NCBI GenBank assembly: GCA_964540205.1
Contig: CAZIMJ010000142.1
Location: 1 to 57,122 of the forward strand
Reading direction: 5' to 3'
From: an uncultured Eubacteriales bacterium
GTDB taxonomy: Bacteria > Acidobacteriota > Aminicenantia > Aminicenantales > Aminicenantaceae
Length of the DNA: 57,122 nt
A program made the translations under genes and the position numbers. Below, one piece after another: positions 11,687 through 55,562 of the stretch (its first letter is position 1; every line of letters begins with the position of its first letter). The notes beneath the pieces were generated by a model, which was not told the origin of the DNA, searched no databases, and was given only the letters and a program-made list of their open reading frames with translations.

Positions 11687-11716
11687 ACCGGGTAAATAAA
11701 AGAGCGAGGAAATAAA

Positions 11717-11809
11717 ATGACAGGAAAATTGATCGTTACGATCGTTGGAATTTTACTCATAATTTTTGTGAATTGGTACTTTTTGTTTGGAAATAAAAAA
11801 ACAATGTAG
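11717..11809 (+). CDS. unannotated 30-aa single-TM peptide downstream of copA (hypothetical)
   Basis: ATG 11717 is preceded by GAGGA at 7-nt spacing. Product is MTGKLIVTIVGILLIIFVNWYFLFGNKKTM, one hydrophobic helix. It falls below the ORF-track length cutoff. Confidence 0.4.
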   Translation: MTGKLIVTIVGILLIIFVNWYFLFGNKKTM

Positions 11810-11832
11810 GGTCGGCTCCCCGAGCGGACCGA
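11805..11832 (+). repeat. stop-codon-overlapping hairpin repeat, copy A
   Basis: TGTAGGGTCGGCTCCCCGAGCGGACCGA. Stem 11810-11818 / 11822-11830 (8 of 9 bp), loop CCC. A 28-nt homologue lies at 17950-17977. Confidence 0.6.
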
Positions 11833-11874
11833 TAAACAATACGAATGTTCGTAAAGAACAAAAAGGTGAGAACA

Positions 11875-13146: not shown

Positions 13147-13207
13147 ACTATTCATAAAACAGGTGAATCAATATAAATTACAACTCTGATTTAAAGGAGG
13201 TTACAGA

Positions 13208-14740: not shown

Positions 14741-14801
14741 GATGGGCGATCCAAACAATTCCGTGTTTGTTTGGGATTAATATTGTATTCAGGAGAAGCC
14801 G

Positions 14802-35285: not shown

Positions 35286-35804
35286 TTACTGCTTTTCTGG
35301 CCTAGGATGCTTGACTTTTGCCCAGGCGGCGTCAAAATCGAAGGGTTTATCATGAGCATTTTCATGACAGGAAAGGCACTGTGTTTTTATAGCATCAGGC
35401 GAACCGTATTCTGTCAAACCGTTCTTCACAGCTTCGGCATGGTCTTTCATGATGCTCATCTTTTTGAATGCACTTCCAGGGCCATGACAGACCTCACATG
35501 ACACTCCCTCTTCTTTTAACTCGGGTGCCTTTTCCGCAAGTGGGCTATGGCATTTCAAGCATTTCGGATTGTCGGGAGCATCTGCTGCGAGCGCTTTGGC
35601 ATCATCAGATGTCAGTGCGGAGAATGATTTAGAATGTTTCCTGGCTTCCCATAAGGGAAACTGCTGGCCTTGTTTTTCACTCTTGTGACACATTTTGCAT
35701 TTCGCTGCACCCACATAAGTGAAATCCTGTGTAAAAAGCGTAAAAGGAATGATGATTATCAAAACTGCTGTTAAATAGATTAGCTTCTTCACCTCATCCT
35801 CCAT
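35286..35804 (-). CDS. periplasmic tetraheme c-type cytochrome
   Basis: CKMCH, CLKCH, CEVCH and CLSCH motifs plus a signal peptide (KKLIYLTAVLIIII). Start is ambiguous: ATG 35804, or GTG 35792, which has a GGAGGA 4 nt upstream. The track TTG at 35828 lies at or upstream of the predicted sigma54 transcription start. Confidence 0.8.
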   Translation of the reverse strand: MEDEVKKLIYLTAVLIIIIPFTLFTQDFTYVGAAKCKMCHKSEKQGQQFPLWEARKHSKSFSALTSDDAKALAADAPDNPKCLKCHSPLAEKAPELKEEGVSCEVCHGPGSAFKKMSIMKDHAEAVKNGLTEYGSPDAIKTQCLSCHENAHDKPFDFDAAWAKVKHPRPEKQ

Positions 35805-35835: not shown

Positions 35836-35851
35836 AGCAAGATGTATGCCA
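35836..35851 (-). promoter_or_regulatory. sigma54 (-24/-12) promoter
   Basis: Minus strand reads TGGCAT-ACATC-TTGCT, with GG and GC at canonical spacing. Lies about 30-45 nt upstream of the tetraheme gene start. Confidence 0.6.
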
Positions 35852-35934
35852 AGATAAAGAGAAAATTATTATGTTGTAATCAAAGAAGTTATAAAGAATA
35901 ACGCAAAAGTTATCAGAAGAATAAAAACACTAAT

Positions 35935-35970
35935 TGGGTGATATGACCCACACCAGGGGGAATTCACCCA
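35935..35970. promoter_or_regulatory. candidate enhancer (UAS) for a sigma54 activator
   Basis: TGGGTGATATGACCCA (15/16 identical to the palindrome at 47368), then 13 nt, then the half-site TCACCCA. Lies 85-120 bp upstream of the sigma54 promoter. Confidence 0.5.
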
Positions 35971-35988: not shown

Positions 35989-38007
35989 TCAGAGGGATTC
36001 GTTTTCTGTTTCTTTTCCTATGGAGTCCACATTTTTTATCAAATTTGTCAAGGCCTCTTCCATATACATATAATTATGGATTCCTGAGCTACCGTCAAGC
36101 TTGATATTCTGAAGTGTGCATTCGGTTTCCCGCAGTGTCTTCTTCTCTTGTTCGCTCAGCTTCAGCTTTTTCTTTTCCTTTAGGAGTGACATCAGAGATG
36201 CGGACAGATCCTTCACGGATTGTTGCCATTCTGTGAACATGTCAGCATAATCCTCATCATGGCAGTCCAGGCACTTATTTTTATCGGACCTGAATATGTT
36301 GTTCTGATCATTAAAATGACAATCTGTACATTCTGCACCCGCTTCGAACATGATGTCTCCGGGGACTTCTTTTTCGTTGAGGATCCCACCCTGATAGAAA
36401 GTTTTCTGCAATTGATGACAACTCGTACAGTCTTTCTTAAGGTCTTTATGGTGACAGGACGCACAGCCCTTCTTTGTGGCGATGAGCTCGCCATGCGTGC
36501 GGACGTTTGAATGGCAGGTGTCACACTGGATGTTCTGTTCGATGAGGTGTTTTTTGTGTGGGAAATTTAGACCATAGACATATGCATTGATTTCCTCGAT
36601 CCCTTGATGGTAGTTGGAACACTGAGTGGGGATGTTTTTAGCTGGAGCTTCAAACGTTGGAGGTTTATAACGAGATTCAATGACATTCAGCGCCTCAAGC
36701 ATCTTATTGTAAGCAGCAAAAAGCAGTTCTTGGGAATAGGCGAAATTGTGGACACTCTTACCCTTGTCCACAATTTCGATATTGAATAGCGCTTCTTCCA
36801 TGAGGGATTCCGCATTCCTCTTGTTTGTGTGTCTTGATCCTTTGACGATCTGCAATGTGGAATTGTAGACAGACCTGATTTGGATTAGTTTTTTTGCGGT
36901 TGAGGTTTCCCAATCCCTGAGGATGAGAGAAAAACCTTTGGCATGGCAGGATTCACAGGATTCCGCCTCGGAAACAAATGTTTCTCCCTTGATGCCGTCG
37001 CCTTTGGCTTCCTCATGAAAGATGTGACAGCCTTTGCAGCTCAGTCCTTTTTCAAGCATGATGTTGGGCATGGGGTGAGAAACGCCCTTGCCACCTTCTC
37101 CGATATACAGCATTTTTTGAGCTTTATGAAAATCCGTATGACAGGATTGGCAATTGGCGATAGATTCAATATCCTTGATGATCTTGTGCTGGATTTCCAT
37201 GTGGCATTGGTTGCATTCGATTTTATTCTGAAAAATGTGTGTGTCGTGCATCAGGTCAGTATCCTCGTATTGCTCAAGCCTATCTTGCTCCCAGTGGCAC
37301 TTGTAACAGTTTTCTCTAGGAACTTCTCCATCACCAAGGACAGTGTTGGCGTGGCATTTGTCACAGGTGAAACCGTTATCGAAAACAAGAGAGTGATTGA
37401 ATCGTGTGTCTTCATTGTTGACAAGGGTGTCTTTTGTATGGCAATGGGAACAATCATCTATCTGGGGATAGTGCTCGCTTTTTTTGAAATGGCAGATGAA
37501 GCAGGTGCTTTCAGTGACCGTGATGTGCTCTCCCTGAACGATCTGGGAGTGGCAGCTTGTGCACTGGAGGCGTTTCCCCCTTTTTAGATCTTCGAAATGG
37601 ATTTTGTGGTCGAAGACAACCTTTTTGAATTTGACTCGGCCTTCAAGTAACCTTCTATCGTGACATCCTTCTGTCAAGCAACTCTCATCGCGGATCTCTG
37701 CCCATGGTTTAGATTTGACGTAAAGCTTAGTCCAGTAGCGACCCACCATGACGAGTCCCTCGATCTTTTTTCTCAACACGGACCGGATTCCTCCGGATGG
37801 TGGATAATGGCACGCACTGCATTCGAATTCACTGTGCGAAGATGTTTCCCAACTTTCGAAAAAAGGCTTCATAAAATGGCATGAGGCACAAAAACCCGAA
37901 TGAGACGTGAATTCCACGGCTGTAACAAACAGAACTAGAACAAATAAAGCGATACTGCCAAAAATGATAAGTCTCTTTTTTCTTTTTTTATGTTTCTTTT
38001 CTTTCAT
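35989..38007 (-). CDS. membrane-anchored multiheme cytochrome (16 CXXCH + 1 CX4CH) with a NapC/NirT/NrfH-like N-terminus
   Basis: ATG 38007 after GAGGA gives MKEKKHKKRKKRLIIFGSIALFVLVLFV (TM anchor). CASCH...CSACH follows, as in NapC/NrfH quinol dehydrogenases, then 14 further CXXCH motifs. The track extension to 38292 overlaps ccsA. Confidence 0.85.
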   Translation of the reverse strand: MKEKKHKKRKKRLIIFGSIALFVLVLFVTAVEFTSHSGFCASCHFMKPFFESWETSSHSEFECSACHYPPSGGIRSVLRKKIEGLVMVGRYWTKLYVKSKPWAEIRDESCLTEGCHDRRLLEGRVKFKKVVFDHKIHFEDLKRGKRLQCTSCHSQIVQGEHITVTESTCFICHFKKSEHYPQIDDCSHCHTKDTLVNNEDTRFNHSLVFDNGFTCDKCHANTVLGDGEVPRENCYKCHWEQDRLEQYEDTDLMHDTHIFQNKIECNQCHMEIQHKIIKDIESIANCQSCHTDFHKAQKMLYIGEGGKGVSHPMPNIMLEKGLSCKGCHIFHEEAKGDGIKGETFVSEAESCESCHAKGFSLILRDWETSTAKKLIQIRSVYNSTLQIVKGSRHTNKRNAESLMEEALFNIEIVDKGKSVHNFAYSQELLFAAYNKMLEALNVIESRYKPPTFEAPAKNIPTQCSNYHQGIEEINAYVYGLNFPHKKHLIEQNIQCDTCHSNVRTHGELIATKKGCASCHHKDLKKDCTSCHQLQKTFYQGGILNEKEVPGDIMFEAGAECTDCHFNDQNNIFRSDKNKCLDCHDEDYADMFTEWQQSVKDLSASLMSLLKEKKKLKLSEQEKKTLRETECTLQNIKLDGSSGIHNYMYMEEALTNLIKNVDSIGKETENESL

Positions 38008-38138
38008 CGCTTTTTCCTCGTGGATATTCAGCCGCGTATTATAGTCGATCTGCCTGAGTTTGGATCTCTTCGTTATCCTGTTATCTTCTCTATTTCTTAA
38101 TCGAACTCTTTTATTACAGAGTCGCTCTGGCACGGAGA

Positions 38139-38957
38139 TCAAGTGTAGCTGTGGAGTCCGGCTAGCAGATAATTCACGCCGAAGTAAGTGAAGAGTGCAG
38201 CAAGAAATCCGATTACGGCGATGAGTGCGGACCGGCGCCCCTTCCAACCCATCACGACCCGTGTGTGTAAATACAGAGCAAAAACGAACCAAGTGATCAG
38301 ACTCCAGGTCTCTTTAGGGTCCCAACTCCAGTAACTTCCCCAGGCTTTATAAGCCCAGACCATACCGAAAACGAGTCCTCCAAGTGTAAAAAGCGGGAAT
38401 CCGATGGCGATGGTTCTATAACTGATGGAATCGAGTTTTTCAGCTGTCAGAGAAGATTTTGCAGCCATTCCCTTTTTCTCTTTAGAATCTGCCACTAGAT
38501 ACATAATGCTTGTGATAAATCCTACAGCGAAAAAAGCCTCACCGAGAAGAGTGACAGAAACATGAAGCCACAGCCAATAACTCTGGAGTGCAGGGACAAG
38601 TGGTGTGGCTTCTTTGGGCATGAGTGGCGAGGAGGCCAGTGCCATCAGCCCGATCACAATAAGCATAAAATACGGACCGGCATTTTTTATTTTAAACTTC
38701 CCTTCGATAAGAACATAGGCAAAGATGGCGGACCATGCGAGGAAAGAGAGGGATTCATACATGTTTGTAAAGGGCGCATGTCCGCTTTCAATTGTTCTTA
38801 AAATCAGAGCCGCCGTATGAACGATGAGACCCGCAAATGCAAAGGTGTATCCTGATTTGGCGAGGTTATCTTTTTTCGAAAAGAGGTAGGTAAAATAAAA
38901 GAATGCAGCCACGATGCAGAGGATAAACGCTATAAGAAATAGAGTGGATTCGTTCAT
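38139..38957 (-). CDS. ccsA: cytochrome c biogenesis protein CcsA/ResC (system II heme handling)
   Basis: WGSYWSWDPKETWSLITW tryptophan-rich (WWD) motif, multi-TM, 272 aa. 4-nt overlap with the resB-like gene. Confidence 0.9.
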   Translation of the reverse strand: MNESTLFLIAFILCIVAAFFYFTYLFSKKDNLAKSGYTFAFAGLIVHTAALILRTIESGHAPFTNMYESLSFLAWSAIFAYVLIEGKFKIKNAGPYFMLIVIGLMALASSPLMPKEATPLVPALQSYWLWLHVSVTLLGEAFFAVGFITSIMYLVADSKEKKGMAAKSSLTAEKLDSISYRTIAIGFPLFTLGGLVFGMVWAYKAWGSYWSWDPKETWSLITWFVFALYLHTRVVMGWKGRRSALIAVIGFLAALFTYFGVNYLLAGLHSYT

Positions 38958-40306
38958 TGTGATCTCCTTATGGACTCCATGATTTTGTCAAACTCCGATT
39001 GGAAATCCTCGCGGTTTTTAGCGGCTATCCCGCCGGTTGTGAGATCCGTTTTATTCTGACTTTCTTCAAGGATGATTTTGATCTCTCGAGTGGGCCAGAA
39101 AAAAGCTACAAATAGGCCAACCATAAGAAGGGTACAGCCCACCCAGATAAAGTTGACTCCGGGGTCCTTGGACATCTGAATACCAGAGTATTGGGCGGCT
39201 CGCAAGTCTTTAAATTCAAAGGATAGATCGGTTTCTATGGCTGAATGCATGCGCCCGAAGTCAGGGAACTTGGCAAAGATCCAACTTGAGAATACTTTCT
39301 CTTCCTCTCGCCAGCCTTCGATATAGGCTGCAGGATTATTTGGCTCGAGCGAGCGGGTGGCGATCTCGTTGTTCTCACCGATGATGAAATCCGGAACAAA
39401 ATTGATGACAGCTATTTCGATGTTCTCCTCACCGATCTGCGCTTTTTCTCCCACTCCGAGCTCAAACTTTTTCAAGAAGGCGGGGTCATTTTTCTTTTTG
39501 GCCCAGATCTCTAGTGTAGGATTCTCCCAATCCCATCCATAACTGCTCTGGTAGAAGACAAATCCTTTATGGGAGAGTGGGTGATTGACCTCGATGGTTT
39601 TAGATAAAACATCCGAGCCGTTTTCTATAACTGTGAGGGTGCTTTTCCAGTCCCGGACACTCCCGTTTGGATGATACTCTGTGACAAACTTATCCAGCCG
39701 GAGTTCAAAATCTGCTTGGGGGACAGGAATGGTTTTCCCCTCGGAAATATTCAGATTGGTCCGGAATCCGCTCATTCCACTGATAATCCCACCGATGATA
39801 ATTATGAGAAGGCCGAGATGAACGATATCTGAGCCGAAAAGTCCGAGTACTCGCTTCCGTGCGAGTAAGAACGCCGTGTTTTCGTTTTGATCTGTTTTAA
39901 GACGGAAATGTTTGGATGAAAGCATTTTTTGGACATCAGGTATTGTCTTTTCTAGATTCTGATTCTTTTTGAAACTGGCTGTTGTTTTCAGAGAGAGCAG
40001 CTTCTTTTTCTCTGTCTCAAACTTTGGTTGGAATGCCTTTCTCAATTTTGGAGAGAGGCGGGTGAGTGTGCAAACAAGGATATTCACTGCAAAGAGAAAG
40101 AGCAGAGAGATGAACCACCAGGATTGATAAAGTTTGGTGAACTCTAGCCTGATGAGAAAATTAGCAATATCTCCGTATCGGTCCAAATATTCTCCCGGGC
40201 TGCGCTGCTGAGGGATCAATGTGCCCAGAATGGAAGCTATGGTGATAAAGATCAAAAGAAAAATGGCGAGTTTAACAGAACTGAAAAAATTGAAAAATGA
40301 TTTCAT
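38954..40306 (-). CDS. ccsB: cytochrome c biogenesis protein ResB/CcsB
   Basis: N-terminus FFSSVKLAIFLLIFITIASILGTLIPQ, a large periplasmic domain and C-terminal TM helices, 450 aa. Confidence 0.9.
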   Translation of the reverse strand: MKSFFNFFSSVKLAIFLLIFITIASILGTLIPQQRSPGEYLDRYGDIANFLIRLEFTKLYQSWWFISLLFLFAVNILVCTLTRLSPKLRKAFQPKFETEKKKLLSLKTTASFKKNQNLEKTIPDVQKMLSSKHFRLKTDQNENTAFLLARKRVLGLFGSDIVHLGLLIIIIGGIISGMSGFRTNLNISEGKTIPVPQADFELRLDKFVTEYHPNGSVRDWKSTLTVIENGSDVLSKTIEVNHPLSHKGFVFYQSSYGWDWENPTLEIWAKKKNDPAFLKKFELGVGEKAQIGEENIEIAVINFVPDFIIGENNEIATRSLEPNNPAAYIEGWREEEKVFSSWIFAKFPDFGRMHSAIETDLSFEFKDLRAAQYSGIQMSKDPGVNFIWVGCTLLMVGLFVAFFWPTREIKIILEESQNKTDLTTGGIAAKNREDFQSEFDKIMESIRRSQ

Positions 40307-40522
40307 TGGACCCTGCTTATATCAGAGATAAGGATTAGTAGGAATAATATAGAATAAGTTGCCTTATGGCAACAACGTAACAATTTTTCCTTGTTCTCTT
40401 CTAAGTTATAGTATCTTTATAGTTAAAGACTCCATATTATATCATATCTATGAAAATAGTAGGTTTAACTTTTTACCTGTTCGTGCTGTTTGACTCCGAA
40501 TCTTCTGATCTTGGCTCGAAAT

Positions 40523-41767
40523 CTAGTGATCTTCTCCGTGTGCAGCTCGAAGCACCTTGGCTTCATGTTTGATCTCCGCAAGTGACCGCTGCATCTCGCT
40601 CCAGCCATACCAGAGGGCATAATCCGGATTGGCATGGAATGTCCCCTGGAAGGTTCTCATTCTGTGTTCAAGAAACATTACGAAGAGTTTCTGTTCGACC
40701 AGGGTGGGAGCATCATGGAAGGTAAGGAGATCCGGGAATGGGTAAGCATAACTTTCAGGTTTCTTCAAGGTTCCACCTTTATACAGACCAGCAACTATCT
40801 GGATGGCTTCGGCCATCAACCGGTCGGCTTCCTTGATCATCTGATCGCCTTTTTCCAGTTCAGATTTGGCAAAGTTCAGAGAATGGCAGTCATTACATGT
40901 CTTCAGCATTTTGTCACGCTCTGTCTGCCAGTCTTCTTGAGTTAGGCGGGCAACATTGGCAGCTTTGACCACATCGAGTCTTGCGGTAGGATTCCCCTCC
41001 GGATCGAGAACTCCCAATCCCCGGAGGATCGTGGCACGGTCTGCTGCCCACTGTTTGTCTTCGGGCATGGGTAGCCGGACCGCAAGAAATCCCCAGGCCG
41101 TGAGCACGGCATGATTGCCTTCCTGCATGTGGCAAGTCTGGCAGGTGGGAGCAGCGACAGTTTCAGGGAGTGTTTTATTCTGCTTGAGCAGGTAGCGGAC
41201 GCCATGTTTTGAGCCGGAGTACATTTCCCACTGGGGGTGGTCAAAACCCATGTGGCAAGTCTGGCAGGCTTGAGGTTGTTTGGCCTCTTGAACAGAAAAT
41301 ATATGACGTGTATGACAGGCATCGCAGGAGGCGACACCGAATCCTGCGCCTGTCTTCTTCAATTCTTGAATTTCTTCCTCGGTCTTCAATCCGATCTTAT
41401 GGCAGGCGCCGCAGCCCTTCATCCCTTCCATCAATGCCATCGGTTGCCAGTGTGCTGTGGGCATGGCCTTCATTGCTGCCCATGCGGCGGCGTGCTTTCC
41501 CGCTTTGAACTCTGCGACCTGTTCATCATGACATTCGGCGCATGTGTCTGGTGTAGGGATCCGGACTTTGTCCACGTCATAGGGATCTTTGTGCTGATCC
41601 CCGTGACATACCGAGCAGTCCACATCATTCTGGCTGTGTTTGCTTAACTGCCAATCCGATACAATGTTGGGAGTGACTTTGGTGTGACAGGTCACACACT
41701 CTTTAGCAAAGGCACCCGCACTAAACATAAAAACAGCTAAAAAAATAAAAACGATTTTAGCCTTCAA
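40523..41767 (-). CDS. octaheme c-type cytochrome, hydroxylamine-oxidoreductase (HAO)-like family
   Basis: 8 CXXCH motifs. CDACHTRHIFS...CQTCHMGFDHPQWEMYSGSKHG resembles the HAO/octaheme family core as I recall it. Signal peptide present. TTG start after GGGAGG. Confidence 0.7.
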   Translation of the reverse strand: MKAKIVFIFLAVFMFSAGAFAKECVTCHTKVTPNIVSDWQLSKHSQNDVDCSVCHGDQHKDPYDVDKVRIPTPDTCAECHDEQVAEFKAGKHAAAWAAMKAMPTAHWQPMALMEGMKGCGACHKIGLKTEEEIQELKKTGAGFGVASCDACHTRHIFSVQEAKQPQACQTCHMGFDHPQWEMYSGSKHGVRYLLKQNKTLPETVAAPTCQTCHMQEGNHAVLTAWGFLAVRLPMPEDKQWAADRATILRGLGVLDPEGNPTARLDVVKAANVARLTQEDWQTERDKMLKTCNDCHSLNFAKSELEKGDQMIKEADRLMAEAIQIVAGLYKGGTLKKPESYAYPFPDLLTFHDAPTLVEQKLFVMFLEHRMRTFQGTFHANPDYALWYGWSEMQRSLAEIKHEAKVLRAAHGEDH

Positions 41768-41818: not shown

Positions 41819-41847
41819 ATTCTATAGAAGTAGTAAGGTCTTTTCAA
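41819..41847 (-). promoter_or_regulatory. candidate sigma70 promoter of the HAO-like gene
   Basis: Minus strand reads TTGAAA (41847-41842), N17, TAGAAT (41824-41819), about 50 nt upstream of the TTG start. Confidence 0.35.
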
Positions 41848-41857
41848 GAAAAAAGAT

Positions 41858-41894
41858 AAAAAAAAGGGCAGCATTTTCGGATGCTGCCCTTTTT
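41858..41894 (-). terminator. rho-independent terminator ending the porin-cytochrome operon
   Basis: GGGCAGCAT-tttcgg-ATGCTGCCC is a 9-bp GC-rich stem. It is flanked by A8 on the plus strand (U8 on the minus transcript) and T5. Lies 27 nt downstream of the 41921 stop. Confidence 0.8.
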
Positions 41895-44079: not shown

Positions 44080-45951
44080 CTATTTATCCCAACTATAGCC
44101 AAATGATATCTCGAAGATATTGACCTTGTAGTCATTGAATCCGGATATCGGTTCTTTGTAATCCACAACCCGGTAGGCCAGCTCTGCAGCCAATCCCATA
44201 AGGAATTCGTACTCAATGTAGGCTTTGAACGTGGTGCGCTTGATCTCCCAGAAACCGGTGTTTTTGTAGAAATTGGCGTAGGCACCGAAGCCCCACTGTT
44301 CATTCAGGTCCCAATCGAGGTAGAAATCCCAGAGAGTGGATTTGCCTTCGTACATGATTTCCCACATGAACGCGCCACCCGGTCCACTCCAATCTGGTGG
44401 ATATTCAACACTCCGGTCGCCCTTGTGCTCCACGTCGATAAGAGCATATCCGGCAAAAGCTTTGATCTTTTCAGTATGATATCCGGCTCGAAGGTTGAGC
44501 ATGTTTTTACTCGATTCCCAGAGCTCATCATAGAGATCATTCTTGGATTTTTGAAAGGTCATTGCTGCAGAGCCGTAGAACTCTTGCAGGCGCACTTTTG
44601 CTGTGGTTCTAAATCGATTATAGGTCATGGGGGAGGTCAGCGTATAGGGATTGTCGTAGGACCCATATTGATGGTCGAATGTTAGATTGAAGATCCGGGA
44701 AGGCGTCCACTGCAGGTTGCCGAAGATCCCATTCCTCGTTGTATCGGTTTCATAGTCTACAGTCTCCAACTCCTCGCTTTTCAACTTTCTCTTCTCGTTC
44801 CTGTATCCGAATGTCAGGCCAAATTTTGATGAGAACTGATACTGAAGTCCGGCTTCGATTCCAAGGGTGTTAAATTTGGGTTCAGTGGTTTTTGTCTCGC
44901 CATCGACGGTCATGGAGCCTTCCTGTTTGAAGTCGTGTGAGCGGACAGCTCCGATCACAGCCAGCTTGTGTGTCACGAGGTATGTGAAGTCTAATTCGTA
45001 GAGTCCGATCTTGCGCTCGAATTTTCCAGTACCACTCATACTGTAATCGAAGGGTCTTCCCAGGTAATTGACGCCATCTGTTTCCTCTGAGTAATGAAGG
45101 TCCATATCCAGGTCGCTGATCTGAGCGATTCCTTTGATCAAGAGACTATCGATCGGCTTGGTGTTGAGTTTGAATGTGTGTGTGAGAGATTTGAGATCAT
45201 AGGGTTGGTCCATGTAGAAATAGCTCAACGAAGAAGGATACCCTGCCCCAGCTCCACCATCGGCTGCGCCAGGAAGGAAGTAACTATTGGTATTTTCGTA
45301 CTCCCGGACTTTTGCCTCATAGACAAGAGAGAGGCGTGAAAAGTGAACATCCACACCTACGGCGATCTCATCAGATTTTTCCTCGATGGGCTTATCGAAC
45401 TCGAATTCGATCCTGTTGATGTCGAGTGTTGTAACACTCATTCCTTTCTTTGTGAATCCGAAATACGAAGCAAAAAGCTGAACATTCTTTGATGCCTCTA
45501 ATGAGAACATCGCGCTGTCCATCGTCCTGTCGAAATCAAAGGTGTGGTAATCGTAGAGGTGGCCGTTGAACTGAGTCTGGTCTGCGTAAAAATAGGCAGA
45601 TTTTCTCCGTTCCCACTTGAATTTATAGCTTCCGTATTTCTGGACGGTGAGATCGAACGACTGGAAAGGTTCGATCCCTAGATTGCGGACGCTGATATCC
45701 AGACGGTCGAAGAATGTCTTGAGGGTTTCTTCCGGCGTGTAACTGAGGTTGAATGAGTGTAGATACGCTCCTGAGCCGAGGTTGATATCTTCTTTGTACT
45801 TTGTGTAAGCTCCGCTGGTGTCGACGAACCGGTAACCGAACTTGAAGTCTCCTTTGAACTTTTTCGCTTCCTCTTGAGCGGAGAGAGAAAATGTCATTGA
45901 TAGGACAAAGACAAACAATAAAACGGGCAATATAATTTTTATTCTTCTCAA
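44080..45951 (-). CDS. putative outer-membrane beta-barrel protein (MtrB/PioB-like position in a porin-cytochrome operon)
   Basis: Signal peptide MRRIKIILPVLLFVFVLSMTFSLSAQ. 623 aa of alternating aromatic/polar beta-strand-like segments with no Cys or heme motifs. Sits between two decaheme genes. Confidence 0.65.
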   Translation of the reverse strand: MRRIKIILPVLLFVFVLSMTFSLSAQEEAKKFKGDFKFGYRFVDTSGAYTKYKEDINLGSGAYLHSFNLSYTPEETLKTFFDRLDISVRNLGIEPFQSFDLTVQKYGSYKFKWERRKSAYFYADQTQFNGHLYDYHTFDFDRTMDSAMFSLEASKNVQLFASYFGFTKKGMSVTTLDINRIEFEFDKPIEEKSDEIAVGVDVHFSRLSLVYEAKVREYENTNSYFLPGAADGGAGAGYPSSLSYFYMDQPYDLKSLTHTFKLNTKPIDSLLIKGIAQISDLDMDLHYSEETDGVNYLGRPFDYSMSGTGKFERKIGLYELDFTYLVTHKLAVIGAVRSHDFKQEGSMTVDGETKTTEPKFNTLGIEAGLQYQFSSKFGLTFGYRNEKRKLKSEELETVDYETDTTRNGIFGNLQWTPSRIFNLTFDHQYGSYDNPYTLTSPMTYNRFRTTAKVRLQEFYGSAAMTFQKSKNDLYDELWESSKNMLNLRAGYHTEKIKAFAGYALIDVEHKGDRSVEYPPDWSGPGGAFMWEIMYEGKSTLWDFYLDWDLNEQWGFGAYANFYKNTGFWEIKRTTFKAYIEYEFLMGLAAELAYRVVDYKEPISGFNDYKVNIFEISFGYSWDK

Positions 45952-45960
45952 TTTTCTCTC

Positions 45961-46818
45961 CTATTTCAAAAAGATCTTGCTCAGATTGGAACCGTGAATG
46001 GTTGCGTGACAGCTCGTACAATTTGTCGAGTAGGAATCGAAGCGTTCGTGCCAGGCAGGTGCTGCCCCATGACAACTGAAGCAGAGGTCCGCAATGCTGT
46101 GGAATGTGAGCATGTGCCTGTTGGGGCTTCCGTGGACATCATGGCATGCGGAGCAACCTTCGATCCTCGATGCGCCGTGTTCATGAAGGTAAGGGCCTTC
46201 CTTATCTGTGTGGCATTTGAAGCAGGATTCGTGCTTGAAGCCTCCTAAGCGCTCTCGTGTGGCTGGAACATGAGGATCATGACAGTCCGAGCAGTCCATG
46301 ATTCCTTCCTGGAGTCTGTGGCGTTCGTTTAACTGGAACTCGGAAAAAACTTCCTGATGACAGATATAACAAGTTTTTGTCGCGCCAAGCTTTAGGAGAG
46401 AAGGATTTGTCTCTTCCGCGTGCATGACATGGCAAGAGGTACAGTCCATGGAAGCTTTTCCATGGGGGCTTGCAAAGTAAGCGGAATTGGACTTGGCATG
46501 ACATGTCAGGCATTTGTCAGTTTTCGCGTTCGGAACATCTGTGGATTTAAAAGCAAAGATGTTTGCTCCCCCTCCTTCTTCGAAGTGCGTCTCAGCATCG
46601 CCGTGGCAAGCCGTGCAGCTGTTATTAACAGCATGAGGCTTGGACATGAATGCTTTGGCCAAGTCTTCATGACAATCGGCGCAAGTGTCGATATCCGCTT
46701 CTTGAACAACAGGTTTGGCAGCGGATAGATACCCTGCAACGACCAGCGCTAAGCCAATGAGCACGATCATCTGGAGGGAGGGCCATGTTTTCTGTTTTGT
46801 GAATTTTGTGTGCAACAA
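45961..46818 (-). CDS. periplasmic decaheme c-type cytochrome, MtrA/DmsE-like
   Basis: 285 aa with 10 CXXCH motifs (about one heme per 28 aa) and a signal peptide. Immediately upstream of the beta-barrel gene. Confidence 0.85.
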   Translation of the reverse strand: MLHTKFTKQKTWPSLQMIVLIGLALVVAGYLSAAKPVVQEADIDTCADCHEDLAKAFMSKPHAVNNSCTACHGDAETHFEEGGGANIFAFKSTDVPNAKTDKCLTCHAKSNSAYFASPHGKASMDCTSCHVMHAEETNPSLLKLGATKTCYICHQEVFSEFQLNERHRLQEGIMDCSDCHDPHVPATRERLGGFKHESCFKCHTDKEGPYLHEHGASRIEGCSACHDVHGSPNRHMLTFHSIADLCFSCHGAAPAWHERFDSYSTNCTSCHATIHGSNLSKIFLK

Positions 46819-47238: not shown

Positions 47239-47254
47239 AGCAATAGTTGTGCCA
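47239..47254 (-). promoter_or_regulatory. sigma54 (-24/-12) promoter
   Basis: Minus strand reads TGGCAC-AACTA-TTGCT, a perfect match to TGGCAC-N5-TTGCW. Lies about 30 nt upstream of the receiver gene ATG. Confidence 0.65.
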
Positions 47255-47347
47255 AGATGGAGAATTCGGGCGTATTAATGTATGTCATTGAAAATAATGA
47301 GTTTGTAATTTGATTTTTTGAGTGGATAAAATTTGCAGAAATAATTA

Positions 47348-47383
47348 TGGGTGAAATACACCAAAAGTGGGTGATATCACCCA
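47348..47383. promoter_or_regulatory. candidate enhancer (UAS) for a sigma54 activator
   Basis: Half-site TGGGTGA, then 13 nt, then the perfect 16-bp palindrome TGGGTGATATCACCCA. Lies about 95-130 bp upstream of the sigma54 promoter. The same architecture occurs at 35935-35970. Confidence 0.55.
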
Positions 47384-47389
47384 CTTTTT
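47363..47389 (-). terminator. possible bidirectional intrinsic terminator (overlaps the palindromic UAS)
   Basis: AAAA-GTGGGTGATATCACCCAC-TTTTT lies about 55 nt downstream of the stop of the sigma54 activator gene. This is an alternative or additional reading of the same palindrome. Confidence 0.4.
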
Positions 47390-47440: not shown

Positions 47441-48832
47441 TCATTCAGGCAGGTTAATATCTTTAGAAGTGATGTTCCATTTTTTTGTCTTGTAACGCAT
47501 GGCATCTCGTGTGATGCCCAATGTTTTTGCGGCTTTTGATTTATTCCCATGAGCTTTGTTCAGAGCCCTGATCAAGAGGTATTTTTCGGCATCAGCTAAG
47601 GTCATTGCCCTTCCAAGAGCTTGTTTCTTTGGCTGAGCCGGGTATGAAGAAGGCCTTCTGTCTGAATGGAAGGGGAGGTGTTTAGCCGTGATATAAGGCC
47701 CCTGTTCAAAGATCATGGCTCTCTCTATGGCATTTTTCAACTCTCGGACGTTTCCCGGCCAGTCGTAATCCAGGAATAGCTTTTGGGCCTCTTTGTCAAG
47801 GCCTTGGATGTTTTTCCTGAATCTGATGTTCTCTTGTCGGACAAAAAAACCGCCAAGCGGAAGAATATCGGTTTTCCTTTCCCGCAAGGGAGGGATGTAA
47901 ATGGGGCAAACGTTGAGCCTATAGTAGAGGTCGTGCCGGAACTTTTCCTCTCCAGTCGCTGTTTCAAGGTCTTGGTTTGTGGTGGCGACCACGCGGATAT
48001 CGACTTCGATGTCTTTGAGTCCGCCAACCCGCTTGAATGACTGTGTCTCTAAAAATCGCAACAACTTTGCCTGTAGAGGAAGACTCATTGTCCCGATCTC
48101 GTCAAGAAGGAGTGTTCCTTTATGTGCGAGTTCGACCAGACCCTTTTTCTGTTGTTTGGCATCGGTAAATGCACCTTTTTCGTAGCCGAATAATTCGCTC
48201 TCCAGAAGATTCTCGGGAATGGCAGAACAGTTTATAGCCTGATATGACGCTGCTTTCCTTCGGCTGAGATAGTGAATGGCCTGTGCCAAAAGGTCTTTTC
48301 CGGTTCCGCTCTCACCCTGCAAAAGCACAATTTTGGCCTCGCTCTGGGCGACTATCTGGGTGATCTCAAGAATCTTTTTCATCGTCTTGGATTCAGTGAC
48401 AATAGAAGACAGGTCGAACTGCTTTTGTTCTTTTTCTTTGTAGTATGCGACTTCTTTTTTAAGAGATGCTGTTTCCAGAGCATTGTTCACTGCGCTCTGT
48501 AGTTTGAGGTCGTTGATCGGCTTTGCGATAAAATCATACGCTCCACGGCGCATAGCTGTCACCGCATCGTCGATAGAACCATAAGCTGTGATCATAATCA
48601 CCGGGATTCCTGGCCACTGGCCCTTTATCTCCTCAAGGAACTCTGTCCCTTTCTGATCCGGAAGATTGACATCAAGAACCACCAGGTCAGGGGATTCTCT
48701 CTCTAATATTTGTCTCCCCAACTCACAGGTTTCAGCCTCGAGAGTTTCCAAGTTCCATTCGGAAAACTTTTGAATCAGACTCCATCGGATGAGTTTCTCA
48801 TCGTCGATAATAAGGATCCTCTTTCTGCTCAT
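47441..48832 (-). CDS. sigma54-dependent response regulator (NtrC family enhancer-binding protein)
   Basis: Receiver domain (ILIIDDE, VVLDVNLPD), AAA+ domain (GESGTGKDLLA, ESELFGYEKGAFTDA) and a C-terminal Fis-type HTH (AAKTLGITRDAMRYK). ATG 48832 is preferred to GTG 48838. Confidence 0.95.
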   Translation of the reverse strand: MSRKRILIIDDEKLIRWSLIQKFSEWNLETLEAETCELGRQILERESPDLVVLDVNLPDQKGTEFLEEIKGQWPGIPVIMITAYGSIDDAVTAMRRGAYDFIAKPINDLKLQSAVNNALETASLKKEVAYYKEKEQKQFDLSSIVTESKTMKKILEITQIVAQSEAKIVLLQGESGTGKDLLAQAIHYLSRRKAASYQAINCSAIPENLLESELFGYEKGAFTDAKQQKKGLVELAHKGTLLLDEIGTMSLPLQAKLLRFLETQSFKRVGGLKDIEVDIRVVATTNQDLETATGEEKFRHDLYYRLNVCPIYIPPLRERKTDILPLGGFFVRQENIRFRKNIQGLDKEAQKLFLDYDWPGNVRELKNAIERAMIFEQGPYITAKHLPFHSDRRPSSYPAQPKKQALGRAMTLADAEKYLLIRALNKAHGNKSKAAKTLGITRDAMRYKTKKWNITSKDINLPE

Positions 48833-48834
48833 GG

Positions 48835-50325
48835 TCACTCAGCCCGATTGATAAGAGAAAGGCGAATGGTGAAGACCGTTCCCTTTCCCTCTTCACTTTG
48901 GACATCTATAGAGCCCTTGTGGGCCTCGATGGTCTTTTTGCAGATGGAAAGCCCCAGTCCCGTTCCACGTCTTCGTGTCGTGAAAAAGGGATCAAACACT
49001 TGGGTGAGATGTTCGGCCTTAATTCCTTTTCCATCGTCCCTAATGGCGATTTCCAGCCATCGATCTTTTTGTTGATTCAGGTCGATCGAAATTTCCCCTT
49101 TCTCTTCTATCGCCGCGATACTATTTATCAAAAGATTCAGAATGACTTCCTGGATCTTGTTTTCATCACATAGTATTTGAATCTCTTCTTTGGATTTTTC
49201 CATATGGAACTTGATGTCCTTTTGTTGCGTTTGGGATTGAGCGAAAGTGACAGCTCTTTGGATACATTCGTTTGGATTGACGGGTTTCAAGTTGATTTCT
49301 CTTGGCCGTGCATAGCTCAACAGGTCTTGGACGATGTTGTAAATACGGTCTATCTGTTGCAGGATCTCCGTAAAGATCTCCTTTTGTGGGTCGGCGGGAT
49401 CCGTCCTTTGGTTGATGACTTCTAAGGCTCCTTTAATGCCGGCAATAGGATTTTTTATCTCATGAGCGAGCCCTGCCGCCAGCTCCCCCATCGATGCGAG
49501 GTGCCCCGCCTTTTCCAATTCTCTGCCGTGCAATTCTTCGATTTGTTGCTTTGCCAGTCTAAGATTTGAGACCATGATGTTAAAGCTCTGGGTGAGATCC
49601 CCGATGTCATCATTTTTTAAGGGTCTAAGCTGAACGTGGAGGTTGCCCCCTTGAACTTGATTCATCTTATTCTTTAATTGGGATAGGGGTCGGTTTATGA
49701 TTTTTTCAAAAAGGCGCAGAGTGATAAAGATCAGTACCCCTAGTGCAAGGAAACTTATGATAACAGATCTGAGTTGGGTTTTGTAAATGAACGCAGCCAT
49801 AGGTATTTCCTCAAGATCCATTTCAAGCAGGGCGATTATTCTCTTATCGGATGAATGGCATGCATAACATTCCTCTTTGTTTTGGATGGTGTAAAAAGTT
49901 TGATTTGTGGAAATGTGGTTAATCTTTGGAATAATCGCTTGATCCACACCTGAATAGAGCTCATTTACTTTCTGGATTCGATTTTCTGAGATGTAGTTAC
50001 CAACTTCATCGAAATCTGAAGATTCTAATATTTTCCCTTTGAAGTCGATGATGCGAAGGCTTTTAATTTTATTCGAATCAGCCAGACGCTGCAAAGCGTA
50101 GCCCACATCATTTGGCTTTCCCTCTTGCATTCGATGGGTGACGCTGTATTCTATCATCGAGCCTACAAGTTCTGCCTTCTCTTGACTTAATGTATTGATG
50201 ATGTTTTTTTGTGTGGATAGATAGAGGTACGTCAAAAGGGCGCCCGCCGATATTCCGATGACCACAATGTGAAGGACGATCTTGTTTTTTAAATTCCAAT
50301 CTTTGAGTCGCAGATTTATTTTCAT
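48835..50325 (-). CDS. sensor histidine kinase with a periplasmic CXXCH (c-heme) sensor domain, HAMP, HisKA and HATPase
   Basis: Two TM helices flank a periplasmic domain of about 140 aa that contains CYACH (49869-49855). HAMP region, H-box GLAHEIKNP, and N/G boxes (RRRGTGLGLSI). Confidence 0.9.
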   Translation of the reverse strand: MKINLRLKDWNLKNKIVLHIVVIGISAGALLTYLYLSTQKNIINTLSQEKAELVGSMIEYSVTHRMQEGKPNDVGYALQRLADSNKIKSLRIIDFKGKILESSDFDEVGNYISENRIQKVNELYSGVDQAIIPKINHISTNQTFYTIQNKEECYACHSSDKRIIALLEMDLEEIPMAAFIYKTQLRSVIISFLALGVLIFITLRLFEKIINRPLSQLKNKMNQVQGGNLHVQLRPLKNDDIGDLTQSFNIMVSNLRLAKQQIEELHGRELEKAGHLASMGELAAGLAHEIKNPIAGIKGALEVINQRTDPADPQKEIFTEILQQIDRIYNIVQDLLSYARPREINLKPVNPNECIQRAVTFAQSQTQQKDIKFHMEKSKEEIQILCDENKIQEVILNLLINSIAAIEEKGEISIDLNQQKDRWLEIAIRDDGKGIKAEHLTQVFDPFFTTRRRGTGLGLSICKKTIEAHKGSIDVQSEEGKGTVFTIRLSLINRAE

Positions 50326-50338
50326 TACCTTCTTCAGT

Positions 50339-51373
50339 TTAAAATTGCAAAATAAATTCTGTTCCCGGCTCCCTCCGCATCTCTATTTCTCCATCGAGCT
50401 GATCGACCAAATTCATAACTATTTGCATTCCGAGAGTGGTTGCATTACGGAAATCTATGGTTTCGGGAAATCCTATCCCATTGTCTTTAAAATGCAGGAT
50501 TTGACTTCCGCATGCCGCTTTACCCAGACTTATAACAATCTCTCCTTTCAAGTCATCAGGAAATGCATGCTTCAGGGCATTGGATAACAATTCATTGATT
50601 ATCAAAGTACAGGGGATGGCTTTGTCCAAGACAAGATTTACATCCTGGATTTCCCTTTGGACTCGAATGTTTTTTATACCTTCACAATACAGAGAAAAAG
50701 AATAGCTGATCAATTTCTCTAGTGGATTTGAAATATTAATTCGCAATAAGCTCGGGGAGTTATACAATCTCCTCTTGATGAAGTCTATGGTTTTTATTCG
50801 GTTTTTTGCTGCCTGTATGTCTGCCTCAATCGTTTCTTTTTCGAGTTTCTCATGTAATAATTCCAGAATCCGGGAAAAGACCTCGTGGTCAAATCTTGCT
50901 TGGCGTTTAATTTCATCACGGATAATTTCATTCTCTCTGTACGTGGACATGATGAGTTCTTCGGCCAGCTTTCGCTCATGAATATCCCTGACGACACTCA
51001 GGATGATCTTATGATCTTTGTAGTTTATGTAGCGGGCACTCACCTCTACTGGCATGACAGTCCCGTCTTTCCTCCGGTCGGCTGACTCGAATATCGCCAC
51101 CCCATCCTTCTTCAGTTGGCCGACTCTTTCCCTAACTTTTTCGGAGAATTCTGGTGCTACCAAATCCTTCAGGGACATCTTGAGCAGATCTTGTTTCTTG
51201 AATCCCAGACGTTTGTACATCGTCTGATTGACATCAAATATGTGACCTTCGGTGTCATGAATGATAATTCCATCATTGGTACTCTCAAAGATCATCCTGT
51301 ATAAATTTTCGGATTCAAGGAGGATTTTTAATTCTTTTATGAGGCGTTCATTAGGCTTGTCTGTGTCTTTCAT
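50339..51373 (-). CDS. cytoplasmic PAS-domain sensor kinase (HisKA_2/HATPase-like) with a divergent H-box
   Basis: PAS domain (ENLYRMIFESTNDGIIIHD...), then FDHEVFSRIL in place of the usual HHRVKNNL, then an ATPase domain (INELLSNALKHAF, DNGIGF). Confidence 0.75.
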   Translation of the reverse strand: MKDTDKPNERLIKELKILLESENLYRMIFESTNDGIIIHDTEGHIFDVNQTMYKRLGFKKQDLLKMSLKDLVAPEFSEKVRERVGQLKKDGVAIFESADRRKDGTVMPVEVSARYINYKDHKIILSVVRDIHERKLAEELIMSTYRENEIIRDEIKRQARFDHEVFSRILELLHEKLEKETIEADIQAAKNRIKTIDFIKRRLYNSPSLLRINISNPLEKLISYSFSLYCEGIKNIRVQREIQDVNLVLDKAIPCTLIINELLSNALKHAFPDDLKGEIVISLGKAACGSQILHFKDNGIGFPETIDFRNATTLGMQIVMNLVDQLDGEIEMRREPGTEFILQF

Positions 51374-51477: not shown

Positions 51478-51915
51478 TTATTTTTTGCTTTTTTTCTTTT
51501 TATCCTCACGATCTGTGAGGTCTTGAAGAGTCAAGCTCTCGAAATAATCTTGCAGCATTGAGCTTGCTTCTTTCCAGACTTCGTGTGTAGCGCAAACATC
51601 TACACGGTCGCAGTAATCGTCATCTTCTACACAATCCACAAGACTCATTGTGCCTTCGAGGGAATTGAGGATGTCGCTGAGTTGGATCTGAGAAGGGTGG
51701 CGGGCCAGGATGTAGCCTCCACCTGCACCCCGGATGCTCTTGACGAGCTTGTTGATCTTGAGAGGTATGATGATCTGCTCCAAGTAGCGGATGGAGATTT
51801 CTTCTGAATCCGAGACGTTTTTGAGAATAATGGCGTCGTTGCCGTTGTTATAATTATGGGCGAGATTCAGCATCAAACGTGTGCCGTATCTGCCTTTGGT
51901 CGAAAGTCTGATCAT
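51478..51915 (-). CDS. Rrf2-family transcriptional regulator (IscR/NsrR-like, three-Cys cluster motif)
   Basis: MIRLSTKGRYGTRLMLNLA wHTH N-terminus, GGGYILAR, and C-x6-C-x5-C (CVEDDDYCDRVDVC). Confidence 0.9.
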   Translation of the reverse strand: MIRLSTKGRYGTRLMLNLAHNYNNGNDAIILKNVSDSEEISIRYLEQIIIPLKINKLVKSIRGAGGGYILARHPSQIQLSDILNSLEGTMSLVDCVEDDDYCDRVDVCATHEVWKEASSMLQDYFESLTLQDLTDREDKKKKSKK

Positions 51916-54308: not shown

Positions 54309-55562
54309 TTATTTGGAGAGGGAGGGTCGCTTTCTCTTTAAGGTTTCGATATTAAAATCTTCAAAAATAATGGCAATGGCGATCTTTGTGATAAAGGTGA
54401 AGATTAAAAATCCAATGGCAAAGATACCCATCGAGACCTTAAGTTCAACCAGGGACGGCCGGTAACCGTAGATCTGTCCCAATGAATCCGGCGTGAATCC
54501 GGGGATGAGGAGAGCGATTCCCTTTTCGATATAAACACCGAACCAGATCAATATGGCCCCGATATTCAATGTGACCACGTTTTTACGGGTGGCAGGGATC
54601 AAGAAGAGCAGGAAGGCGATGAAACTGATGAAAAGTGAAGCCCATCCGTACGTCACGATATCGCGGTTTTCACCCACTCCTTTAAACAGATACTTGAGAT
54701 GAACCAGGTGTTCCGTGTCGGAATAGACCTCTTTGAACACCTCGGCAAAGAAAAAGAAGAGATTGATAAACATGGCATAGGCCATGAGTTCTGCGATCTT
54801 CCAGATGGCCTCATCCTTGATCTCAAAGGTCGTGGTTTTTTTTAGGATCTGAAATAGGATAATAAGAACCGCAGGTCCGGAACAGAACGCAGAGGCCAAA
54901 AATTTTGGGGCGAGCAGGGCGCTATTCCAATATGGCCGGCCGGCAAATCCGTTGTAAAGAAAGGCAGTGACGGTGTGAATGCCTATGGCCACAGGAATGG
55001 AAAACAGTATCAGTGGTGTTAACAAGCGTCTGTTGTACTCCCGTTTATAGAATAGAGTGTAGATCAGGTAACCGACGATGATAAGATTCAGGAAGAAATA
55101 TAGTGTGAGAACTACAGAATCCCAGGCTAGGAGTGATGACGGAACGTTCAGTTTGCCGATCAAAGGAATCATGTGCCACAATCGCAGGGGATTGCCCACA
55201 TCGACGATGACAAACAGGATACACATGATCACGGCACTGATAGCGAGGAGCTCCCCGAATATGACCACTTCTTTGAGGGGCTTCCAGTTGTAGATATAGG
55301 CCGGAATAACCAGCATGATTGCTGCTGCCGCAACGCCAACAAGAAAAGTGAAATTTCCGATATAAAAAGCCCACGAAACTGGATCTCTCATATTGGTAAC
55401 CAGCAATCCCTGTTTCAGCTGCTCAATATATCCCGTACTGCCAACAATGATGAGTGTAAAGAGAAAGGCCAGCCAGAGATAATACCGCTTGCTTCCTCGG
55501 ATAAGAATCTGAAAACTTTCTTTGATAAACCGGATAAAATTCAACCTGTCACCCCATACCAA
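54309..55562 (-). CDS. NrfD/PsrC-family integral membrane quinone-interacting subunit
   Basis: 417 aa, about 10 TM helices, NrfD-like N-terminus (..GSKRYYLWLAFLF..., PVSWAFYIGNFTFLVG). TTG start 3 nt after the upstream stop. Confidence 0.85.
   Translation of the reverse strand: MVWGDRLNFIRFIKESFQILIRGSKRYYLWLAFLFTLIIVGSTGYIEQLKQGLLVTNMRDPVSWAFYIGNFTFLVGVAAAAIMLVIPAYIYNWKPLKEVVIFGELLAISAVIMCILFVIVDVGNPLRLWHMIPLIGKLNVPSSLLAWDSVVLTLYFFLNLIIVGYLIYTLFYKREYNRRLLTPLILFSIPVAIGIHTVTAFLYNGFAGRPYWNSALLAPKFLASAFCSGPAVLIILFQILKKTTTFEIKDEAIWKIAELMAYAMFINLFFFFAEVFKEVYSDTEHLVHLKYLFKGVGENRDIVTYGWASLFISFIAFLLFLIPATRKNVVTLNIGAILIWFGVYIEKGIALLIPGFTPDSLGQIYGYRPSLVELKVSMGIFAIGFLIFTFITKIAIAIIFEDFNIETLKRKRPSLSK

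Follow-up and report, generated by a model that had tools for sequence, protein, structure and literature searches.

Introduction

In the systems formed by NtrC (GlnG) and NtrB at glnAp2, and by the Aquifex regulators NtrC1 and NtrC4, an activator carrying a receiver, an AAA+ domain and a Fis-type helix-turn-helix (HTH) works with a histidine kinase partner, and at glnAp2 tandem dyads lie ~100-150 bp upstream of the GG-N10-GC element in whole-turn phasing; the recognition sequence of NtrC is TGCACCA-N3-TGGTGCA. Here we describe a locus with this same layout in a 57-kb stretch of DNA (contig CAZIMJ010000142.1, 57,122 nucleotides; hereafter the window) from an uncultured bacterium of the Aminicenantaceae, where it is centred on positions 47239 to 47389. 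It differs from the NtrC systems in that its dyads have the sequence TGGGKNAT-ATNMCCCA, the sigma-54 contact loop of its activator reads GAFTDA, and its apparent targets are cytochrome genes rather than genes of nitrogen assimilation; moreover, unlike NtrB, a cytoplasmic kinase controlled by PII, its kinase has a predicted periplasmic haem domain as the sensor. From the comparison of related sequences we consider it highly probable that a sigma-54-dependent promoter lies here together with an enhancer upstream of it, probably switching on an operon for an outer-membrane cytochrome conduit.

To our knowledge, little is understood of how the building of such conduits is controlled in bacteria other than Shewanella and Geobacter. 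The Aminicenantes are abundant uncultured bacteria of sediments, and their physiology has been inferred from genomes only. Sigma-54 has been linked to multihaem cytochromes in other bacteria: over-expression of RpoN raises omcB in Geobacter (PMC2725144); BccR (GSU0598) activates the sigma-54-dependent cbcBA operon of Geobacter sulfurreducens as the redox potential falls (bioRxiv 10.1101/2021.04.15.440034); and DVU3142 of Desulfovibrio vulgaris was predicted by comparative genomics to control the ohcBAC octahaem cytochrome complex (PMC4641369). In Azospira suillum, a trio consisting of a kinase, a PAS protein and a sigma-54 regulator (PcrS/PcrP/PcrR) controls perchlorate respiration (PMC3884062).

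Results

The window was compared with related contigs fetched for this purpose and designated by L numbers: 23 genome loci from a genome-collection scan and at least seven metagenome loci from a metagenome pattern scan. The identity of the activator across these ~30 Aminicenantes genomes and metagenome contigs is 59-92%. Promoter P1, which had been read from the sequence alone as TGGCAC-AACTA-TTGCT on the minus strand at 47254..47239, was confirmed by reading both strands. It matches 11 of the 11 specified positions of TGGCAC-N5-TTGCW, with the GG doublet at 47253-47252 and the GC doublet at 47241-47240, and the predicted transcription start, 12 nt downstream of GC, lies at ~47228. The ATG (47209) of the first gene of the operon, which encodes a receiver-only response regulator, begins 29 nt after the 16-mer, in agreement with the ~30 nt first given. 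The somewhat relaxed pattern TGGCAY-N5-TTGCW has only two matches in the 57 kb, namely P1 and a second promoter, P2, located before a tetrahaem cytochrome gene; 0.16 matches were expected from shuffled sequences, and two were reached by only 1 of 100 shuffles.

The -24/-12 element is kept before the receiver gene in 23 genome loci and at least seven metagenome loci. Over 30 loci its specified positions hold a mean information of 1.76 bits, against 0.30 bits in the 20 nt upstream. The element, the dyads described below and the spacing between them thus stand out as conserved islands amid the diverging flanks of the ~30 related loci.

What had been interpreted as three half-sites upstream of P1 are two adjacent 16-bp dyads with the consensus TGGGKNAT-ATNMCCCA, defined with a matrix that was iteratively refined on the 23 orthologous promoter regions. 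The perfect 16-bp palindrome TGGGTGATATCACCCA, reported at 47368..47383, is indeed present and extends to a perfect 26-bp palindrome, AAAAGTGGGTGATATCACCCACTTTT, at 47363..47388. The third half-site, TGGGTGA, had also been given with its correct sequence and its correct distance of 13 nt, but not so the tripartite layout derived from it: the extra TGGGTGA copies (47348..47354 and, at the second site, 35964..35970), each 13 nt from a palindrome, form the better-preserved half of a further, degenerate dyad (47348..47363 and 35955..35970, respectively). The sequence-only reading had further proposed that the layout recurs at 35935..35970 with the same 13-nt spacing. A second copy does exist there, and TGGGTGATATGACCCA at 35935..35950 is a copy of TGGGTGATATCACCCA with one mismatch; however, it again comprises two dyads instead of three half-sites, and the unit of two dyads has opposite orientations at the two sites, with the stronger dyad promoter-distal at P1 and promoter-proximal at P2. 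We refer to the dyad pairs at P1 and P2 as upstream activating sequences (UAS) 1 and 2, respectively.

The centres of the two dyads of UAS1 are exactly 20 bp apart, a spacing at which both would face roughly the same side of the helix. Over the 23 orthologous promoters the pair is present in 22, spaced at 20 bp in 20 of them and at 19 bp in the other 2, and L012 carries three dyads in a 20-bp register. Measured from the T of TGGCAC, the proximal dyad of these pairs has its centre 91-106 bp upstream. In the window, the enhancer-promoter distances of P1 and P2 differ by 10 bp; with dyad centres at about -127 and -147 for P1 and at about -117 and -137 for P2, the two enhancers differ by one helical turn. 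The dyad pair therefore has the properties by which an enhancer is recognized, namely two or more dyads placed ~80-150 bp upstream, in whole-turn phasing and in either orientation.

Could these motifs be chance matches, or copies of a dispersed repeat of the repetitive extragenic palindromic (REP) type, unrelated to the control of transcription? TGGGTGA taken alone is mildly over-represented in the window (15 copies for 7.8 expected), as such a repeat might be. The full palindrome and the sigma-54 consensus, however, each occur far above the shuffled expectation: TGGGTGATATCACCCA at up to 3 mismatches has 3 matches in the window for 0.25 expected, a number reached by no shuffle. Position and spacing are also conserved across genomes whose activators are no more than 59-92% identical. 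Furthermore, a scan for the dyad pair in 442 kb of Aminicenantes DNA gave one site per locus, always at a -24/-12 promoter, with a second copy in the window, and the control, 792 kb of loci from other phyla, contained none. Since the pair occurs only at -24/-12 promoters, it is not a dispersed repeat. The fixed spacing of the dyads and the pair scan with its control loci refute this explanation, which had been named beforehand as a case that would overturn the enhancer, and we give it practically no credence.

Another explanation holds that the palindrome (47363..47388) serves above all to end transcription of the activator gene, as an intrinsic and bidirectional terminator, and resembles an enhancer only secondarily. 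Its minus-strand hairpin, 53 nt past the activator stop codon, has a stem of 11 pairs, of which 5 are G-C, a loop of 4 nt and a TTTT tract behind it; RNA folding gave -16.5 kcal/mol, and -11 to -14 kcal/mol in the closest relatives, L003 and L005. Nevertheless, when all the orthologous dyads were folded, the hairpin energies varied between 0 and -18 kcal/mol, most of the dyads had no T-run behind them, and the substitutions break the symmetry without compensation; it is the sequence that is conserved and not the strength of the hairpin. Nor would a terminator account for dyads paired at a fixed 20-bp spacing, for those at P2 and in L112, which lie behind unrelated genes, or for those found upstream of P1 in L018, L019 and L023, where no activator gene precedes them. 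In L019 and L023 the order is dyads and P1, response regulator, cytochrome, porin, cytochrome, kinase and activator, with a ResB gene divergent beside the enhancer; in L018 the dyads and TGGCAT-N5-CTGCT stand before the receiver gene, 10 kb from the activator gene. Because of the gene order in these three loci, we regard the dyads as part of the promoter rather than of the activator gene's 3' end. On the strength of the folding comparison, termination was rejected as the main role of the dyads, and we hold it to be very unlikely; in the window, the 26-mer may combine the functions of terminator and enhancer.

Between the dyads and the -24 element, the 30 anchored sequences show a single conserved island, an AT- or T-rich block ~40 bp upstream of -24, which is a candidate site for DNA bending. 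The consensus of the integration host factor (IHF), WATCAANNNNTTR, was matched with no more than one mismatch in ~11 of the 23 P1 regions, at an offset of -37 to -41 from TGG, and had no match at that threshold in the P1 region of the window itself; for these reasons we name the block only as AT-rich.

The gene adjacent to UAS1 had been identified as encoding an NtrC-type activator with a Fis-type HTH, and its Pfam domains agree with this assignment: Response_reg (1.7e-26), Sigma54_activat (1.1e-65), AAA_lid_14 and HTH_8 (7e-13). Its Walker A motif is GESGTGKD. The best relatives of solved structure are NtrC1 and NtrC4 of Aquifex, and structures of ZraR and NtrC were also matched. Its homologues make up a large Candidatus Aminicenantes family at 64-92% identity. 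The peptide of the GAFTDA loop (AAA+ region, 48000..48300) was among the patterns that recovered activators of 40-48% identity from Planctomycetota, Vicinamibacterales and others.

The preceding gene had been read as encoding a c-haem sensor kinase, in keeping with a CXXCH motif that is invariant in 24 of 24 orthologues. Several comparisons bear on its sensor domain. As a single sequence it gave no match to the PDB. The profile built from the orthologues, by contrast, gave GSU0582 and GSU0935 (3B47 and 3B42) as top matches, at E ~0.02 and with the N..C..CH haem site aligned. Nine of 11 kinase orthologues match PF21563 at E<=5, the best at 6.5e-6, and the window sequence scores 15.2 bits for a cut-off of 27. 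A fold search with the AlphaFold model of the sensor (predicted local distance difference test, pLDDT, 69) returned the sensors of WalK, DcuS, CitA and DctB, with 3B42 ranking 5th at E=5e-4. These profile and model comparisons lead us to predict that the domain is a periplasmic PAS/Cache-like c-haem sensor related to GSU0582 and GSU0935. The haem probably reports the periplasmic redox state or a haem ligand; a redox input appears plausible, and it should be kept in mind that related haem-c and haem-Cache sensor domains may sense nitric oxide or other ligands (PMC12889525). The core of the kinase is nearest to AtoS and ZraS, which are partners of sigma-54 regulators.

The dyads might instead be operators of another regulator, either the Rrf2-family protein encoded at 51478..51915 or an enhancer-binding protein encoded elsewhere. 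In nearly all the loci the kinase and activator genes have an Rrf2 gene with them, and Rrf2 proteins bind palindromes as dimers. Yet a position ~100-150 bp upstream, tandem phasing and a strict association with -24/-12 elements fit an enhancer, and neither a repressor nor an activator of sigma-70 promoters. In addition, a kinase-activator pair in L151 has a dyad pair with a sigma-54 site right beside it, and no Rrf2 homologue was detected in the 9.6 kb of this locus; 47441..48832 is the only sigma-54 activator gene of the window; and the HTH region of the activator is highly conserved over the lineages that share the dyad motif. The recognition helices of the HTH were also compared between lineages that have the motif and lineages that lack it; they did not discriminate. 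Taken together, we judge a different regulator to be improbable, and the dyads are most likely binding sites for dimers of the adjacent NtrC-type regulator.

P2 departs from the consensus only at position 6 (T in place of C), and the ATG of its first gene follows 31 nt after the element. It is kept as TGGCACACATTTTGCT in the close relatives L080, L081 and L082, and so are the dyads of UAS2, even in L081, whose intergenic DNA has otherwise diverged. Contigs fetched around homologues of the tetrahaem cytochrome extended this comparison. In L016, L018, L054 and L083-L085 a near-consensus sigma-70 promoter, TTGACA-N17-TAAAAT, stands instead before the tetrahaem gene (57-78% identical). Promoter turnover has therefore occurred at this gene, which has a sigma-70-like promoter in some lineages and a sigma-54 promoter with enhancer in the close relatives. 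The sequence-only reading had both sigma-54 promoters driving multihaem cytochrome operons. P2 does exist and cytochromes are found in both gene sets, although P1 is led by a receiver gene and P2 is restricted to close relatives. The AT-rich block of the P2 region, TATAACTTCTTTGATTAC (35868..35890), resembles the P1-type blocks of L003 and L011, for example TATAACTTCTTTATTTTC in L011, and this likeness suggests that the whole enhancer-promoter module was copied and not built piecemeal.

The second gene after P2 encodes a 925-aa cytochrome c/b fusion, likely an inner-membrane protein, that we take to resemble the CbcL-type quinol oxidoreductases of Geobacter. Its membrane part is similar to cytochrome b561/FdnI, and in L084 separate genes cover this region. 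Among the metagenome matches listed, L112 carries the dyad pair, the AT block and TGGCAC-N5-ATGCA before genes for a NapC/NirT-like multihaem cytochrome, a Rieske protein and a cytochrome b. The contexts of P2 and L112 indicate that the regulon seems to gain different inner-membrane electron-transfer operons according to the lineage. Also among the listed matches, L151 has an activator 47% identical to that of the window and a haem-kinase homologue beside a dyad pair, a sigma-54 site and an NrfD-like gene; L105 showed no clear target gene, and L089 stands before a gene whose product looks like a glycosyltransferase. We do not claim that the motif is used outside the Aminicenantes: the metagenome matches listed included many chance or unrelated ones of high G+C content, and L151 is suggestive.

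The gene order is conserved as Rrf2, PAS kinase (in part of the loci), haem kinase, activator, enhancer with P1, receiver, decahaem cytochrome, porin and decahaem cytochrome (Table 1). In every orthologous locus the first gene after P1 is that of the receiver-only protein. P1 had been placed in front of a porin-cytochrome operon; this needs the correction that the leading gene encodes the 126-aa receiver and not a cytochrome. The protein retains the acidic pocket and the lysine of the KPF motif, and its helix alpha-1, DDDKLIRWSLKEI, resembles that of the activator, DDEKLIRWSLIQK; the segment KLIRWSL is common to both proteins in all lineages. This hints that the two proteins may dock on the same kinase. 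In L004 a glutamate replaces the phospho-accepting aspartate of the receiver.

The TIGR03508 score of the first decahaem cytochrome, 169.8 bits, is just under the curated cut-off of 192.2, and the porin-like gene has a conserved position between the two decahaem genes. Given the strong terminator after the second decahaem gene and a sigma-70-like promoter (41847..41819) that follows it, the P1 operon probably consists of four genes only, the later cytochrome, ResB and CcsA genes being separate from it. The unit after P1 in L019 and L023 is formed by the same four genes.

Table 1. Features of the locus (positions are those of the window; gene assignments from Pfam and NCBIfam scans, haem motifs counted as CXXCH).
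Feature	Position	Strand	Remarks
Sigma-54 promoter P1, TGGCAC-AACTA-TTGCT	47254..47239	minus	direct sequence reading
UAS1 promoter-proximal dyad, TGGTGTATTTCACCCA in promoter orientation	47363..47348		centre ~-127; matrix score 19.0
UAS1 promoter-distal dyad, core TGGGTGATATCACCCA at 47368..47383	47363..47388		centre ~-147
AT-rich block, core TTATTTTCAAT	47287..47297	minus	candidate DNA-bending (IHF/HU-like) site
Sigma-54 promoter P2, TGGCAT-ACATC-TTGCT	35851..35836	minus	predicted start ~35825
UAS2	35935..35970		proximal dyad TGGGTCATATCACCCA at 35950..35935, centre ~-117
UAS2 distal dyad, TGGGTGAATTCCCCCT	35970..35955		centre ~-137; 20 bp centre to centre
NtrC-family enhancer-binding response regulator	47441..48832	minus	receiver, AAA+, Fis-type HTH
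Sensor histidine kinase	48835..50325	minus	transmembrane segment, periplasmic PAS/Cache-like domain with CYACH (predicted), transmembrane segment, HAMP, HisKA, HATPase
Cytoplasmic PAS histidine kinase (HisKA_2), accessory	50339..51373	minus	only in closer relatives
Rrf2-family regulator	51478..51915	minus	
Receiver-only (CheY-like) response regulator, 126 aa	46829..47209	minus	Pfam Response_reg 2.6e-20
Decahaem cytochrome, periplasmic, MtrA/DmsE-like	45961..46818	minus	10 CXXCH; TIGR03508 7.7e-50
Putative outer-membrane beta-barrel (porin), 623 aa	44080..45951	minus	no haem motif; weak OMP_b-brl match
Second decahaem cytochrome, 715 aa	41921..44068	minus	10 CXXCH; presumed outer conduit component
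Intrinsic terminator	41894..41861	minus	14-bp stem and long T-run, after second decahaem gene
8-CXXCH cytochrome, ResB/CcsA, NapC/NirT-like cytochrome with 16 CXXCH	35989..41767	minus	
Tetrahaem cytochrome (P2 operon)	35286..35804	minus	
925-aa cytochrome c (19 CXXCH)/dihaem cytochrome b fusion (P2 operon)	32394..35171	minus	

In nearly all loci the Rrf2 gene is the immediate upstream neighbour of the kinase-activator pair, whereas in L019-L023 it follows the pair and has the opposite orientation; it is duplicated in L006, L008, L014, L059 and L128. Its product may provide a second layer of regulation. The open reading frame listed at 35989..38292 (767 aa) shares ~150 nt with the CcsA gene, and the homologues are annotated with lengths of 662-672 aa; it is probably over-extended, the true start being near 38000. 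Elsewhere, the window contains genes for an NrfD-type membrane subunit (54309..55562) and an aldehyde:ferredoxin oxidoreductase (2354..4129), together with an unrelated heavy-metal export cluster (8990..17954) made up of a P-type ATPase with YHS and HMA domains, an outer-membrane factor, a CusB-like adaptor and an AcrB/CusA-like pump. Several third-party-annotated records of metagenome-assembled genomes labelled as uncultured Eubacteriales (L002, L004, L006, L008, L018, L059 and L066) hold genes 62-91% identical to, and syntenic with, those of Aminicenantes, and their label is probably wrong.

Discussion

The proposal that P1 is a sigma-54 promoter with an upstream enhancer is backed by the conservation of its elements in ~30 loci, by the exclusive occurrence of the dyads at -24/-12 promoters, and by gene orders in which the dyads move with the promoter. 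By analogy with the NtrC family, the regulator, once phosphorylated and bound to the DNA as dimers, would assemble into an AAA+ ring; looping of the DNA, probably aided by a bend at the AT-rich block, would carry this ring to the closed sigma-54 holoenzyme at TGGCAC-N5-TTGCT, and ATP hydrolysis would then open the promoter. Activation of P1 would yield the receiver-only regulator, the MtrA-like decahaem cytochrome, the porin-like protein and the second decahaem cytochrome, and that of P2 the small tetrahaem cytochrome together with the cytochrome c/b fusion.

Some observations weigh against this interpretation. A search of the window and the fetched loci for rpoN, with a probe for the C-terminus of E. 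coli RpoN and a regular expression for the RpoN box, did not find this gene. The activator of the window, like 118 of 120 homologues, has GAFTDA as its sigma-54 contact loop in place of the canonical GAFTGA; in this regard, GAFTDA is listed among the natural variants expected to stay active in a survey of Desulfovibrio (PMC4641369). As the Rrf2 gene travels with those of the kinase and the activator, co-localisation alone does not single out the activator as the protein that binds the dyads. The distal dyad of the window is a good hairpin with TTTT directly after the activator gene, perhaps reflecting a second role. P2 is absent beyond the close relatives, in L016, L018, L054 and L083-L085. 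Finally, the product of 44080..45951 is a putative conduit porin on the basis of a weak OMP_b-brl match and of gene order.

Furthermore, the making of an extracellular electron conduit could be governed here by a self-limiting redox switch whose regulon is actively evolving, an idea that we put forward as tentative and somewhat unlikely. The c-haem kinase would sense the redox state of the pool of periplasmic cytochromes, and thereby, indirectly, whether an external electron acceptor is available, and would phosphorylate the NtrC-type activator. The receiver-only protein, through its KLIRWSL segment, would compete for the kinase as a phosphate sink, so that the response might become a pulse or acquire a threshold. 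The portable module formed by two dyads, the AT block and the -24/-12 element would have been placed before different quinol-oxidising cytochrome operons of the inner membrane according to the Aminicenantes lineage, replacing sigma-70 promoters.

Judged from its sequence conservation, the locus is a genuine and well-conserved regulatory module. It provides a complete regulatory hypothesis for a conduit, comprising a c-haem kinase, an activator, a 16-bp motif with its position matrix and two promoters. With the dyad motif, the regulon of any Aminicenantes genome can be mapped, and the proteins are small enough to be studied in vitro without culturing the organism.

The mechanism is that of standard NtrC/sigma-54 enhancer control and adds nothing new to the biology of sigma-54. 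The sequence-only reading had presented the wiring as undescribed, which was overstated, because sigma-54 control of multihaem operons has been described for BccR-cbcBA and predicted for DVU3142-ohcBAC. The narrower part of that statement stands: in the literature we found neither an outer-membrane porin-cytochrome operon nor any case in Aminicenantes for which such control is described, and a search on Aminicenantes and sigma-54 gave nothing relevant.

BccR is a regulator with receiver, AAA+ and HTH domains located by the sigma-54 promoter of a multihaem operon for extracellular electron transfer, as in the window; the cbcBA operon also holds a response-regulator gene, and the target of P2 is likewise a cytochrome c/b module (bioRxiv 10.1101/2021.04.15.440034). 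There are also differences: BccR is divergent from its target, no cognate kinase is named in that report, the organism belongs to a different phylum, and the target is an inner-membrane bc-type cytochrome, whereas that of P1 is a predicted outer-membrane porin-cytochrome set (bioRxiv 10.1101/2021.04.15.440034). The case of DVU3142-ohcBAC rests on the same kind of evidence as ours, an enhancer-binding protein whose gene lies together with a predicted binding site and a conserved sigma-54 promoter upstream of a multihaem cytochrome complex; in contrast to the activator of the window, DVU3142 is a one-component regulator devoid of receiver and kinase, with a different motif and a different target complex (PMC4641369). 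PcrS/PcrP/PcrR are a membrane kinase with an unusual periplasmic domain, a separate PAS protein and a sigma-54-type regulator, encoded next to a respiratory operon with an RpoN motif, and resemble our locus with its membrane kinase, PAS kinase and activator; they serve another respiratory system, no haem motif is reported for PcrS in the text consulted, and the proteins are related to those of the window by domain class only (PMC3884062). The domains of GSU0582 and GSU0935 (3B47 and 3B42; PF21563) align with the periplasmic domain of the kinase, the haem site included, but they belong to chemotaxis receptors, whereas the predicted haem domain of the window would feed a histidine kinase and, through it, a sigma-54 activator.

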